A stretch of 64,000 nucleotides of DNA, taken from assembly GCA_964016885.1 (NCBI GenBank), contig OZ024741.1, positions 143,964,001 to 144,028,000 of the forward strand, in the 5' to 3' direction. This DNA is from Eledone cirrhosa (lineage: Eukaryota). The position numbers were made by a program, and so were the translations under genes. Below the pieces are notes generated by a model that ran no database searches, was not told where the DNA came from, and saw only the letters and a list, made by a program, of their open reading frames with translations. Positions 30,314 to 53,011 of this stretch are shown here, one piece after another (the stretch's first letter is position 1; each line of letters starts with the position of its first letter).

Positions 30314-31330
30314 TTCTGTATGGGGAACTGGCCACCGGCACAAGAGCACGAGGACGACCTTATCTCCGTTTCAAAGACGTCTGCAGTAGGGATATGAAGT
30401 CAATTGATCTGAACATCCAGAGATGGGAAGGAGTCGCTAATGATCACCCACGATGGAGACGAGTACTGTGCAGAGGGATGGGGCCGGGGAGATGAGAAAC
30501 TGAATCTACTATCCCAAGTATCGAGAACTCTGTTGAATAATGGCCTTACTAGTTTAAAACTGATAAGATCCTGACACCCTCTCTTTCTCTATGTGCGTGT
30601 GTATGTGTAGAGGGGGGGGGTTACGTTTAGATCCCATAACATAGCGGTTCGACAGCAAAAAGATCGATAAATTAAGTTCTTAGATCGATATGGTCGATTA
30701 AAATATGATCGCAGTTTGAAACTAGTAAACGTATTCGTTTGAATTTACAAATTGGGAATAAAAAGTACTCAATACATGTGAAATCATTTATTCGAAGATG
30801 AAGCTTCCCTACGTTACAATATCAGTGGAAAAATAGGCACTACAACGCTATTAGCTGTCAGTCGAAAGCAGCCGATGAAAGCAAAACATCGTTTATTTCC
30901 GTATTACTACCACGCGTAAGTGAAGTTACTTGGTGGTAGTAATACGGAAATAAACGATGACGAATGACGTCACCTTCGCCTGCTTTCATCGGCTGCTTTC
31001 ACGACTGACAGCTATATATCACGTGAACACAATCACATTATTCTTTCAAAGGGAAAAGTTTGGCGCCATTTTTCTAACAAGGCACAGGTCAACAAACGCA
31101 GGAGATAAGTAGAAACAATAAAAGCAAAAGATAAGAAAATATAAGTAATATCAAATAATTATTAAAAACGTTACAGGAGTCGCATTACACGAATAATTAA
31201 GTTTCATACATACATATATATATGTGTGTATGTATGTATATATATGTATTTTATCTGATGAAAGCGGTGGCCCTTAAAATATGTATAAAATAAATATGGT
31301 TTTATAAATATAGTTTCCATTTATTAATAG

Positions 31331-31363
<33 letters not shown>

Positions 31364-31655
31364 GTATATATACATATGTATGTATGTAAAAAAAAAAATA
31401 TCAGCAATTGTATTAAACTAAGATTTTATTGTTTTATATTTTGTATCTCGGCTCTGTAATACATTTGAAAATTTACATTGTAAGTACCAGTAATACACTG
31501 GGTATTTGCTGGCCTTGTGCCAAAGTAGAAACAATTATTTTAATAAAACTCCGGATAAACATAAACTGTTGTGTGTTTGTCATCTCTTATGAAAGAGTCG
31601 GCAGATTTTCAATCAACCAACTTTCCTTAGTTGAATAAATATATGTATGTATATA

Positions 31656-32291
31656 TACAATATTAAATAAATGGAAACTATATTTATAAAACCATATCTA
31701 TTTCATTATATATATTTCAGGGATATCATATTAACAATATGCTATGCCTTCCTCAGACAAAATACAATATAAACAGTTTTATAGATAAATAGATTCGACA
31801 TACCGTAACAACATCGACTTGTATTTGAAAAGGTTGATTTGGCAGTGAAAAAATTGTACACAGAGAGAAAGAAAGAGAGAAAAAAAAAAAAAAGAAAGAA
31901 AGACAGAAAACGAAGAAAAAGAAGAAAAAGAAGAAATGCATGGAACAAAATAGAGAGATGGAAAGATAGATAAAGAGAAGAACTTCATGTAAAGAAACAG
32001 AAAGATATATATATATAGAGAGAGAGAGGAAATAGAGATAGATACATATATATAGAAAATTAGGTAGTGGGAGGTCTGTTGAGTAAACGTATCAATGATA
32101 CATTTATTTATTTATTTAGCTCTAGTATTAATGTAAGGGAGATATATATAGAGAGAAAAAAATATAGAGAGAGAAAAAATATAGAGAGAGAAAAAATTTA
32201 AAAATAAAAATAACCAGATATAGGCGAGGAAATATATATAATGAAATAGATATGGTTTTATAAATATAGTTTCCATTTATTTAATATTGTA
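31656..32291. repeat. Perfect 63-bp inverted repeat pair around a purine-rich spacer
   Basis: 31656-31718 is the exact reverse complement of 32229-32291; a third partial copy sits at about 31294-31324. Confidence 0.85.
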
Positions 32292-32660
32292 AATATACTC
32301 CAAATATTTGTCGAGTGCTTTTATATCAGTTATAAATATTTACTAGTTGTAACCCAACAATTTAAATATAACTTTCCATGTATGTATATATATATATATA
32401 CGTATATTTTCTTTAATATTGCAACATTAAAGGAATATATCCTTCTGAAAGAATCGCGAGCAATTTATAATGTTATTTAAGCATTGGTAATGTTATTTAT
32501 GTATTATTTAAAACATATTTGCTACGTTATTCTACTGTAAATTTATTTATATGCTTTGTATATATTATATATACACAAATAATGAATCTGTATATTAAAA
32601 CATCGTTTGTATTATTCAATCAGTTTATTGAACAACTAGAATGCTCATCGTCAAGTACTT

Positions 32661-32730
<70 letters not shown>

Positions 32731-32807
32731 AATCTATATATATGTATATATATGTATGTATATCTATATATATGTGTGTGTGTATGTATATATGTCTATC
32801 CATCTAT

Positions 32808-49404: not shown

Positions 49405-50375
49405 GGCAATGTTAGGTCAGGTGACCATGTCTTGCTCATAAAGAACTGATTTTGGCTTGGTTTCTACAGCTGGATGCCCTTCCTAATGCCAAGCTCATTT
49501 ACAATGAGTACTGGGTGTTTTTTGTGATTCCTCCACGACTACTTTACAGTGTGGACTGGGTGTTTTTTACCGTGTCACCATCACGACCACTTTACAGTGT
49601 TTCGGCCTGTTCTCATGAAAGATATATTGGCGGGTGGGATGGAGTAGTGCATACTGTATGTATGTTTCAGCCTTGGCCTCGTCCCGTGGGAAGTTGGGGT
49701 TTCTGTATTACCTCATAACGCCAGAGATCTTGGTCCTGTGTCATTGCCTTTCAGAGGTGCAATTGGGCAAGGTCGGCTTTTATCACTTCATCTCAAGTCT
49801 TTCTGGGACTTTATGTAGCTGTCATCCTTCATATGAATCACATGTCCATACCAACATAATCTCCTCTCCTGCACACAACATTTGATTCCTGTTATGCCTA
49901 GTTTCTCTTTCAGTTTGTTTATGGTTTGCTGTTCGCGTATATTACTATTACACATCCATCGGAGCATACAAGCTTCATTCCTTTCTAATCTACGCAAGTC
50001 TTCTACACACAGCGCCCAGCTCTCACTACCATGCAACATTGCCGTTCATATGCATACATCATACAGTCTACCTTTTATTCTGAGGGAAAAGCCTTTTGTA
50101 TCCAGCTGTGGCAGTAACTCCCTCAACTTCTTCCATCCTGTTCTTTCAGAACACCCCCCTCCGCTGCTAATTCGGTATTGTTTTTACCAAGTCCTCCCAG
50201 ACTTTGATGTCACTTGTTTTCAGTGATTGTTTGCTGCTTACTGTCCTGGTGCAACTGCTACATGTAAAGCCTACATTCTTAACTAAACTTCCTGAGATCC
50301 CACTACATCTCTTGTGTACCCATAGTTTGCATATGGGGCAGAGGATGGAGTTTCTACCTACACCTCTCCTACATA
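49405..50375 (-). mobile_element. Degenerate RTE family B-like fragment
   Basis: PHD remnant (LCRRGVGRNSILCPICKLWVHKRC), MLHGSE.W and RRL.WYGH. Confidence 0.85.
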
Positions 50376-50434
50376 ATAAGCACACACACACACACACATA
50401 TATATATATACACACACTCACATATATATATATA

Positions 50435-51516
50435 CTAGACGAATTACCAGCGCCTTGCTGCGTTTCACACATTTTTTTTGTAAGAAAATGATAATTGATT
50501 TTAAATCAGTGATATAATTTATGGAGAAAAACTCAATATTACTCAATGTAAAATATAATGCATGAAAAATTGGAAAACATCATTTTTTGTAATATATCAA
50601 ATCAAAATTGCATTATTAAATCTTATTCTTATTTTGTTTCTTGTAAATAATTTTTTTCAAAATATCAATTGAAAACTTTTGTGAATAGGCATCATATCTT
50701 ATCATTTACCTATGGTTTAAGTTTCATATAAATCGAAAGGGAAAAGTTTTCAGTGGGGGTTTGTACCCTCGGGGAACCCTAATAGGGGGTTTAACCACCA
50801 TTAAGGTGTCTTATAGTATTGAAATTTTGTGAATAGGCATCATATCTCTTCATTTATCTATGGTTTAAATTGCATATAAATCGAACCGAAAAAATTTTCA
50901 GCGGGGCTTTTGTGCCCCCTGGTGAACCCTAATAGGGGGTTTAACCCTCATTAGGGTATTGTAATTTTATTGAAATTTGCTGAAATGATGTGAATAGGCA
51001 TCATATCTTGTCGTTTACCTATGGTTTAAATTGCATATAAATTGAAGGGAAAACATTTTCAGCAGGGGTTTGTACCACCGGTGAACCCTAATAGGGGTTT
51101 TAACCCCCATTAGGGTATTTTAATTTTATTGAAATTTGCTGAAATTTTGTGAATAGGCATCATATCTTGTCATTTACCTATGGTTTAAATTTCATATAAA
51201 TCGAAGGTAAAGTTTCAGCGGCGGTTTTGTGCCCCCGATGAACCCTTTGATTAAAATGAAATATACTTATACAAGTACCCTGGGCAATGTAGTTTCAGAA
51301 TATATATGGTTATGGGGGTCTATCTCCAAAACCATAGGAGGAGTTCGTAAAATCTTGTTCCATTCATTGGCCAAACTTTTCACTATAGGGCGTTTAACCC
51401 CCATTAGGGTGTCTTAATATTATTGAAATTTGCACACACACACACACACACACATGAAAATATCTGATGTCATTCGTCAACCTTCCACTACTTTCACTTC
51501 TGTATATTTATGAAGA
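50435..51516 (-). mobile_element. Non-autonomous Helitron-like element with internal ~150-160-bp tandem repeats
   Basis: Minus-strand 3' end CGCAGCAAGGCGCTGGTAATTCGTCTAG|T. 5' end TCTTCATAAATATAC.. followed by (TG)n. Repeat units start at 50681, 50829, 50990 and 51149. Confidence 0.55.
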
Positions 51517-51704
51517 AATGTTTAGAAAACAAATTATTTTCACCAACCTTATTCAAAAGCATGGATACAGTGCCCATGGAGACAAGCGACAGTCCCCATG
51601 GAGACAATCCCCACCAATCAGCAACAATCATCACCAACACCACGTGTAAATAAATAAACTTTAATCTTCACTTTGTGATAAAACACGCATCTGCAAGTTG
51701 AAAA

Positions 51705-52587
51705 ATGAGTTCTATAATATATCCAAGTGTTAAGGGAATTAACCATCGCGATCTTTCCATCGCTACCGCTACTACAGCAGATACCGTCAATTGGTTGAAA
51801 ATTCAAGGACTTCTGAATACACAAAAGGTCTGCCCTTCATGTGGTCAACGTATGTTGGAAGTAGCGAAACAAAATGTGTCAGATGGGATTATCTGGTCAT
51901 GTAAAAGACCATGTAGAAAACAGGTTTCTATTAGAAAAGGCACATTTTTAGAAAATAGCAATTTGAAGTGTGAACAAATAGTTGATATATTATATTTTTG
52001 GGTAAAAGAAGATTTAGCCAAGAAGATTTCAGAGGAATGTCGTATCGCGAATGTGGCCGTAGCAGATTGGCGAAATTTTTGCCGTGATGTATGTGCAGAG
52101 TACTATGTGGCACAAAACATTAAGCTTGGCGGGCCGAACCGAATTGTCGAGATTGATGAAAGCGCATTCGTGAGAAGGAAATACCATCGTGGCCATTCTG
52201 TGAAAACACAGTGGGTTTTTGGTGCTTTGGAAAGAAGTACCAGATGTATTTTAGTAGCAGTAGAAGACAGGACAGCGGGGACACTTTTAACCATTATACA
52301 GGATCGTATATTGCCAGGGACAACCATAATATCTGATCTATCAGCTAGGCTATCAACATTTGACGGTGAACCATTCGATCAATTTTGTTGATCCAGTAAC
52401 ATTTGCCACAACGAATCACATAGAATACTTGTGGAAACACGTAAAAAATAGGAATAAAAGGGAAAACGGGACAGCCAGAAATTTGCTTCAAACCCATCTC
52501 ATTGAATTCATGTGGCGGTATGAATTTAAAGGAGAAATTTTCCAAAAGTTATTAGAACATATCCGTCATCTAATTCCATGTATTTGA
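51705..52587 (+). pseudogene. Merlin / ISXO2 (IS1595/IS1016-like) DDE transposase, frameshifted
   Basis: N-terminal zinc ribbon (CPSC..W.C..C...SIRKGTF), VEIDES, KYHRG, WVFG, ILPGTTIISD. A small deletion/frameshift near 52341 is followed by GYQHLTVNHS.NFVDP..TN.IE..W and EFMWR in another frame. Confidence 0.9.
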
Positions 52588-53011
52588 ATAAGGTTGGTGA
52601 AAAAAATGTTTCTAAACATGCTTTTGAATAAGGTTGGTGAATAATGAAAATATAAATGAATAAATCAAATTTATTTGATAACCTGACTTGTTTTCTATTT
52701 AACTTAAATTTGTTTTCTAATTTGGCCCTTTTAAGAGCCACCTATATTTTCATTTAAGTAACTCCACTTACATCGATATGCTTTATAACCATGACTTGTT
52801 TTCTATTTGGTTCTTTTAAGTCTTCTCCCTCTCTCTCCTCTTCCCCCTCCCTCTCTCCAAAAAACGCGTGAAAACTCCACTTACGCGTGGTAGTAATACG
52901 GAAATAAACGATGTTTGACGAGTGACGTCACCTTCGCCTATTTCCATCGGCTGCTTGGACTGACAGCTAATAGCGTTGTAGTGCCAAAAAATATAAACAT
53001 AAATTATTAAA

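Follow-up and report, generated by a model that had tools for sequence, protein, structure and literature searches.

A dispersed family of giant Merlin (IS1595-type) transposons in Eledone cirrhosa

Two Merlin-like transposon ends stand 22,150 bp apart, end to end, at positions 30836-52985 of a 64,000-nucleotide stretch of the Eledone cirrhosa genome (assembly G000, contig C2:143964001-144028000; hereafter the window), and they raise the question of whether a single element spans the whole interval or whether two small insertions happen to frame repeat-rich DNA. Merlin elements, relatives of IS1595/IS1016, are defined by a DDE_Tnp_IS1595 transposase, terminal inverted repeats (TIRs) of 24-462 bp that begin 5'-GG, target-site duplications (TSDs) of 8-9 bp and internal tandem repeats (PMC8101967), and curated mollusc Merlins average 1,635 bp (PMC10294476). 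A first-pass annotation, made from the sequence alone, had proposed one very large Merlin element. Comparison across the 2.996-Gb assembly, the source of all genome-wide counts given here, confirmed that the interval is one copy of a dispersed giant Merlin (IS1595-type) family, with distinct TSDs at many loci and an interior that is collinear between copies.

Ends, target sites and shared body

The left TIR of the window copy (30836-30863, + strand) is 28 bp long, begins 5'-GG and is the perfect inverse of its mate at 52958-52985. Sequence comparison identified a second perfect inverted block of 39 bp (30884-30922 / 52878-52916), with a 12-bp inverted block between the two, so that the right end (52878-52985, - strand) comprises the 39-bp block and the 28-bp TIR with its 5'-GG tip. 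The flanking TSDs, GAAAAATA on the left (30828-30835, +) and AAAAAATA on the right (52986-52993, +), agree at seven of eight positions; a 7/8 match to the window 8-mer also occurs at 72 of the 41,000 positions of the window outside the element. The paired 28- and 39-bp blocks, the GG termini and the 8-bp flanks described in the first-pass annotation were all recovered.

When the 28-bp TIR was searched against the assembly with at most one mismatch, 414 matches were obtained, compared with none for the reversed control. We scored the best 40 of 582 left-end candidates and the best 40 of 901 right-end candidates. At each of the 30 left-end loci examined, the sequence runs on into one common body; the left end is therefore not a free miniature inverted-repeat transposable element (MITE), and the alternative that the annotation had itself put forward, a MITE ending at 31014 and a separate Merlin, fails on this point. 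Among the 40 scored left ends, 17, including that of the window, have a scored right end 7.5-63 kb downstream, and the TSDs of these pairs match at 8/8 in six cases, at 7/8 in two (the window and one other) and at 9/9 in one, with no match in eight. Fourteen more long pairs were picked by the exact TIR alone, leaving out pairs of 48.2, 59.4 and 70.5 kb and an alternative pairing of 30.1 kb (2/8); ten of the fourteen carry an 8/8 TSD, one being an uninformative AT run. A TSD was found in 19 of these 31 long pairs versus 4 of 930 mismatched cross pairings. Three further pairs on contig C5 (8/8 at 33.8 kb, 7/8 at 28.9 kb and no match at 10.6 kb) bring the total to 21 of 34 long pairs (7.5-63 kb), comprising 20 TSDs of 8 bp (at least 7/8) and one of 9 bp. 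The 19 TSD-bearing copies range from 7.5 to 40.4 kb with a median of 26.5 kb, and the typical unit of the family is 24-29 kb. One copy of 23.6 kb (C1:392475292-392498874) splits a repeat; in 28 matches among the sequences retrieved, the two flanks of this copy adjoin with exactly 8 bp of overlap, a paralogous empty site.

The interior is shared almost throughout. Of the 22,150 bp of the window copy, 20,763 bp recur on the same strand in five or more of 26 other long copies and 19,230 bp in 13 or more, and the matches form collinear chains; about 20-24 of the 26 retain the core at 37-47 kb. Eight copies contain a 1.03-kb LINE-like insertion (LINE, long interspersed nuclear element) that at least six others lack. 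Since its breakpoints coincide in at least seven of the eight, at different loci, it represents baggage that was taken up a single time and thereafter multiplied along with the element. Size differences between copies stem from expanded satellites, internal duplications, deletions and insertions private to single copies: one copy contains an internal duplication, another a 24-kb satellite expansion, and at two single loci (C1:140414986-140435308 and C2:164228503-164390243) the interior core is repeated in tandem with a spacing of ~7 kb. Insertions resembling long-terminal-repeat retroelements are nested in single copies (L096-L097, L121 and L185).

An interior motif (exon A, below) matched 149 places in the assembly, some in tandem within one element, and a transposase motif matched 56; both controls gave none. 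On contigs C1 and C2, 39 of 55 interior matches lie at most 40 kb inside a listed end, compared with 0.3-0.4% of random places, the list of ends comprising exact TIRs and top BLAST matches only. The check suggested in the first-pass annotation, namely that TIRs and internal modules should co-occur with different TSDs, thus came out in its favor, with many loci so paired and their interiors collinear. Among the matches listed, the interior and transposase copies are mostly on the four largest contigs.

In run X1, interior pieces reached contig depths of 918 and 996, as against 7.6-8.6 for unique flank, and although depth itself is no copy number, the ratio agrees with ~120 copies. We estimate the family at 100-150 copies, about 3-4 Mb in total. 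Because restriction-site-associated DNA (RAD) reads from another sample also cover the transposase and the ends, the family cannot be an artefact of the assembly. Runs X5 and X6, labelled as two other organisms, contain low-depth interior pieces (38438-38672, 39193-39321 and 40554-40901) that may represent relatives, a donor or contamination.

In unique blocks the median pairwise difference between copies is 2-3%, and the median distance to the commonest base is 1.3% (29 copies). A tree of 25 copies over 2,533 columns is star-like with no usable clades. These values point to a single, fairly recent burst, which would date to roughly 3-4 Myr if the octopus calibration (JC (Jukes-Cantor) 0.09 = 25 Myr; PMC13282606) applies.

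Transposase and assembly of the family

The transposase gene of the window copy (51705-52586, +) stops about 400 bp inside the right end, as the first-pass annotation had placed it, and its segment 51705-52388 matches Pfam DDE_Tnp_IS1595 (E 1e-6, 29.3 bits, cut-off 27). Relative to the single open copy, the window gene has deletions of 3 bp (after 52241) and 23 bp (after 52339); the resulting frameshift puts the catalytic Glu out of frame. The open copy (L094:6461-7363) encodes a 300-residue protein, P0001, which matches DDE_Tnp_IS1595 at E 6.9e-19 and contains a DDE triad (D151, D212 and E244) that aligns with 15 relatives. No Pfam match to the Zn_Tnp_IS1595 domain was found at E 0.001, though C43, C46 and C66 are invariant. 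Proteins of Octopus bimaculoides (78%) and O. sinensis (72%) are its nearest named relatives among those compared with the transposase.

Most of the pairs chosen by TIR alone contain another junk block in place of the transposase. The block that replaces it in many copies (exemplified by L127:300-7500) consists of LINE pieces and what we take to be a mariner-like fragment, after which come a 25-bp inner tip and then the right end. Run X4 includes short contigs over the transposase at a depth of ~9, a weak, unstranded signal that could come from any copy. At four places, transposase genes stand head to head 1-1.6 kb apart (C1:45541077/45542146, C2:298097350/298098497, C4:282847862/282848887 and C28:102763542/102765172); these are apparently foldback elements of two right halves.

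How might so large a unit have arisen? Directly inside the left TIR region of the window copy lies an internal right-end copy that lacks the outermost 16 bp (30933-31014, +). Its sequence agrees at 82 of 82 positions with the right end of a MITE of 874 bp (L153) and at 74 of 86 with the right end of the window element itself. The transposase module at the other end has end-derived remnants on its left that lack a GG tip, and copies without transposase retain an inner tip ~350-420 bp before the right end. A second type of left end also exists, in which a standard end is followed by ~1 kb of other DNA and then by the same body. Lost inner tips and differing end variants are the pattern given by ends recruited from separate small elements. 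Such small forms do exist: MITEs of 0.24-1.2 kb and compact relatives of 2184 bp (TSD 8/8; a short interspersed nuclear element, or SINE, inside) and 1856 bp (TSD 7/8). We infer from these sequence comparisons that the left end was probably recruited from a MITE and the right end from a compact ~2-kb Merlin.

Under the model we propose, the ends of two small Merlin elements would have been used together, capturing the DNA between them, and the 300-residue DDE transposase would act on the 28-bp ends by cut and paste, producing 8-bp target duplications. The TSDs and the paralogous empty site suggest that excision and insertion are carried out by a transposase, probably this one. Cut-and-paste elements gain copies by gap repair or by transposition during replication, and either route could account for copy gain here. 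The enzyme would presumably be supplied in trans to the frameshifted window copy and to the many copies that lack the gene.

Interior map, transcription and neighboring gene

The common body begins at 31015-31688 and is followed by an insertion (31689-32249) and a LINE 3' fragment (32796-33462, -; a weak DUF6451 match under the cut-off), both private to the window copy. A broken LINE with RVT_1 and PHD domains (33800-36538, -) occurs in the same place and orientation in 13-15 of 16 other copies. An exon-like, purine-rich cassette 0 (37267-37330, +) follows an AG acceptor, and foldback arms (37610-38709) enclose a 31-bp CCCTAA-like (telomere-like) minisatellite at 38021-38295. Exon A, of 48 nt (39077-39124, +), has a GT donor that is joined to 40582 in run X4. 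The 1.03-kb LINE-like 3' fragment (39510-40550, +) is flanked by an 11-12-bp duplication; we take it to be Tx1/L1-like, and no Pfam match was found there. Exon B (40582-40682, +) has a stop in its acidic frame in 16 of 16 aligned copies, and the exon-like cassette C (40982-41110, +) contains variable 18-bp repeats. Next come a degenerate hexamer array (41420-45000, +), whose short open frames consist of Thr/Ala/Val-Asn/Asp dipeptides with no long common frame, and a complex satellite (45200-47560) that is shortened in the window copy and larger by ~24 kb in another. SINE and LINE fragments and simple repeats common to the copies occupy 47560-50420, and a common segment with a 159-bp tandem repeat (50420-51450; repeat at 50820-51211), a putative Helitron according to the first-pass annotation, is present in 14-15 of 16 copies. 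The end-derived subterminal remnant without a GG tip (51457-51600, +) then leads into a 5' leader also found in MITEs and compact relatives, and from there into the transposase.

All of the internal modules reported in the first-pass annotation (foldback, telomere-like array, hexamer array, satellite and exon-like cassettes) were located in the window copy. Its view of the LINE and SINE pieces as later nested insertions did not hold, since most of them belong to the common body and only the two private segments named above do not. As for its suggestion that the interior is the true body or cargo of a giant family, the body is indeed common to the copies, but the cargo is mostly junk DNA in which no host protein gene was recognized. 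That negative covers ORF (open reading frame) lists judged mostly by eye, four interior ORFs in Pfam and one in a protein atlas. Two of the four gave no Pfam family and the others LINE domains; 101 short ORFs were judged by eye; and the atlas returned no match at its 0.9 threshold for the one interior ORF, the top score being 0.85 with low recognition. No viral replication or capsid genes were seen by eye among ORFs of at least 220 aa in 17 copies or of at least 100 aa in the window, lists that were profile-scanned in part.

In run X4, one contig (depth 51.8) links position 39124 to 40582 through GT..AG ends that coincide exactly with the exon A-B borders predicted from the sequence; the joint comes from one run and one contig with no strand, and among the joints listed it was absent from three other runs. 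Run X4 is likely RNA because a 901-nt contig in it joins 53170-53405 to 55935-56028 over a GT..AG host intron. Judged by eye, the joined A-B frame ends 27 codons after the exon A ATG, at a stop common to 16 of 16 copies, and exon A has lost 4 bp in six of 16, so the spliced unit is likely non-coding. A wobble-like base pattern marks the hexamer array, whose open frames stay under ~375 aa among the 150 matches listed.

The first of these host segments (53170-53405, +), spliced to 55935-56028, is the first exon of a neighboring host gene outside the element and starts at most 185 bp from the right TIR. Pieces of the gene lie at 53170-53405, 55935-56028 and 58421-58502, and its start is inside or beside a SINE. 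Its predicted N-terminus looks like a mitochondrial presequence, and the first-pass annotation had taken the gene for MRPL21; a search of the assembly with PF00829 (MRPL21) gave no match, but as a weak exon-by-exon search it is uninformative for a split gene. Elsewhere in the window (19567-21642, -), a 691-aa open frame has a weak hAT dimerization match (E 2.7e-4, just under the cut-off) and is possibly a domesticated hAT transposase.

Competing explanations and standing of the family

The evidence leaves us highly confident that the giant Merlin family is real. The idea of two independent insertions, in which a MITE (30836-31014) and a small Merlin (51.5-53 kb) flank ordinary intergenic DNA rich in repeats and the TSD is due to chance, would suit the MITE-like left end and the A-rich, 7/8 TSD of the window copy, but with 30 of 30 left ends running into one common, collinear interior its probability is negligible. 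Alternatively, a larger element or segmental duplication might have carried the copies along, with the Merlin ends incidental. Three copies (E9, E14 and E15) have the same 300-bp left flank, E14 and E15 being nearly identical; some interiors lack ends nearby; and matches on C211 and C5 resemble block duplicates. Several copies (L085, L098, L108 and also L024) combine the same 300-bp left flank with a tip changed from GG to AG, which suggests a still larger unit or a duplication with an unseen outer end. Such duplication covers a minority of copies, however, whereas in 21 of 34 pairs the TIRs are directly flanked by a distinct 8-9-bp TSD, one of these pairs splitting a repeat at exactly 8 bp, and TSD-bearing copies have unique flanks; we consider incidental ends very unlikely.

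A closer rival accepts the same giant family but has one compact Merlin grow from inside, by nested insertions, gap-repair capture and satellite expansion, with the inner end-like pieces as later self-insertions. The body consists largely of other transposable elements and arrays, copies keep gaining insertions and expansions, self-insertion into subterminal sequence was observed, and the existence of a second left-end type would make the MITE-like left end derived. Set against this are the position of the transposase module at one end, behind tipless end-derived remnants, and the two ends being different sequence variants, as separate elements would give. Growth from inside seems to us a minority possibility, while a composite origin is moderately favored. 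It is less plausible still that the cargo has a function, in that a decayed gene of Asn/Asp repeats or the spliced interior unit benefits element or host and so explains why the body is retained. The GT..AG joint in run X4, the retained core at 37-47 kb and the wobble-like array speak for function; the exon B stop in 16 of 16 copies, the exon A deletion in six of 16, the absence of a long array frame and of an atlas match at the 0.9 threshold speak against it, and a recent burst by itself explains retention. We take the material carried, namely dead LINEs, SINEs, satellites and a spliced unit that is itself likely non-coding, to be most likely baggage of a selfish or neutral kind.

Several observations weigh against the account of a giant, self-mobilized composite family. 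Thirteen of the 34 long pairs have no matching TSD; several of them, though not all, have nested or damaged ends or share an outer flank, and both pair selections favored well-preserved ends. No listed end lies near 16 of the 55 interior matches, and the two such orphans inspected lack a TIR tip over 40 kb and are more diverged, at 2.4 and 2.9%. The tree groups copies neither by shared insertion nor by transposase and so gives no order of events, and recombination between copies is likely. The search for a donor locus of the cargo found none; the more diverged hexamer matches on C5 turned out to be additional copies (three of four stretches with ends, the fourth, of 20 kb, inside a body). Of 34 transposase loci (14 in giant copies and 20 others, out of 56 motif matches; the frame finder required the first catalytic motif), one has an open 300-aa frame, and its product, P0001, has Cys in place of a nearly invariant Trp. 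For the window copy, no empty site was seen: its left flank (30610-30835) gave 20 short partial matches and no full-length paralog. At its right end, read loose ends likewise disclosed no empty site, with the signal swamped by the neighboring SINE. With these points taken into account, we still regard as highly probable a giant family that inserted as 17-40-kb units, was likely moved by its own transposase and likely arose when the ends of two small Merlins captured the intervening DNA.

The family resembles the Merlin superfamily in its transposase domain, DDE triad, GG TIRs, TSD size and lack of a Zn_Tnp_IS1595 match, a domain present in most bacterial IS1595 elements and absent from Merlin (PMC8101967), and differs from it in size. 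Recently active Merlins of O. vulgaris comprise 11 insertions totaling 28,998 bp (PMC13282606, Table 1). Zebrafish Merlin-2_DR and Merlin-1_DR (Repbase), whose repeat coordinates reach 13,661 and 10,335 (PMC8101967, supplement file 5), are likewise long and rich in tandem repeats but about half the size. No Merlin above 20 kb was found in the literature searched, the largest being ~13.7 kb (Repbase, Dfam and subscription papers lay outside the search), and a review of giant transposable elements names no Merlin in the portion covered (PMC6431247). Maize Ac/Ds macrotransposons also mobilize DNA between the ends of two separate elements (PMC4270019), but these are hAT elements known as single alleles, whereas the putative Merlin composite grew into a master family, with 100-150 copies by our estimate. 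Pack-MULEs (at most 7 kb) and large CACTAs (16-20 kb in red algae) are TIR elements with captured host DNA (PMC6431247); in the giant Merlin family, spliced exons are present, and no host protein-gene fragment was recognized among the ORFs judged, mostly by eye. Polintons/Mavericks (15-40 kb) and Teratorn (41-182 kb) are giant, TIR-bounded, DDE-integrated animal elements too (PMC6431247), but their size comes from viral genes, none of which was seen by eye among the ORFs surveyed in the giant Merlin body. The family is, in our assessment, a new form, in size and architecture, of the known Merlin superfamily, with junk rather than gene cargo.

Eukaryotic cut-and-paste elements are thought to be held small because efficiency falls once the cargo exceeds ~6 kb (PMC6431247), and the known giant ones of animals derive their size from viral genes. 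In the giant Merlin family, the usual unit, 24-29 kb of mostly junk amplified in one burst, is paired with a transposase gene of 0.9 kb, which makes the family a direct test case for the size tolerance of Merlin/IS1595 enzymes. The family also shows that a DNA transposon can multiply LINE and SINE copies, a process that would mislead repeat dating and annotation; it provides a route for segmental duplication in cephalopods, and the window copy ends no more than 185 bp from a transcribed host gene. Tentatively, and with more doubt than belief, we suggest that a 300-residue Merlin transposase may spread 25-40-kb composites as readily as MITEs without viral genes, that the family may keep recruiting ends and baggage, and that it may carry a spliced, transcribed non-coding unit to more than 100 loci, some beside host promoters. 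If large composites do spread as readily as MITEs, IS1595/Merlin enzymes would be naturally size-tolerant movers and a hidden source of segmental duplication in cephalopods.

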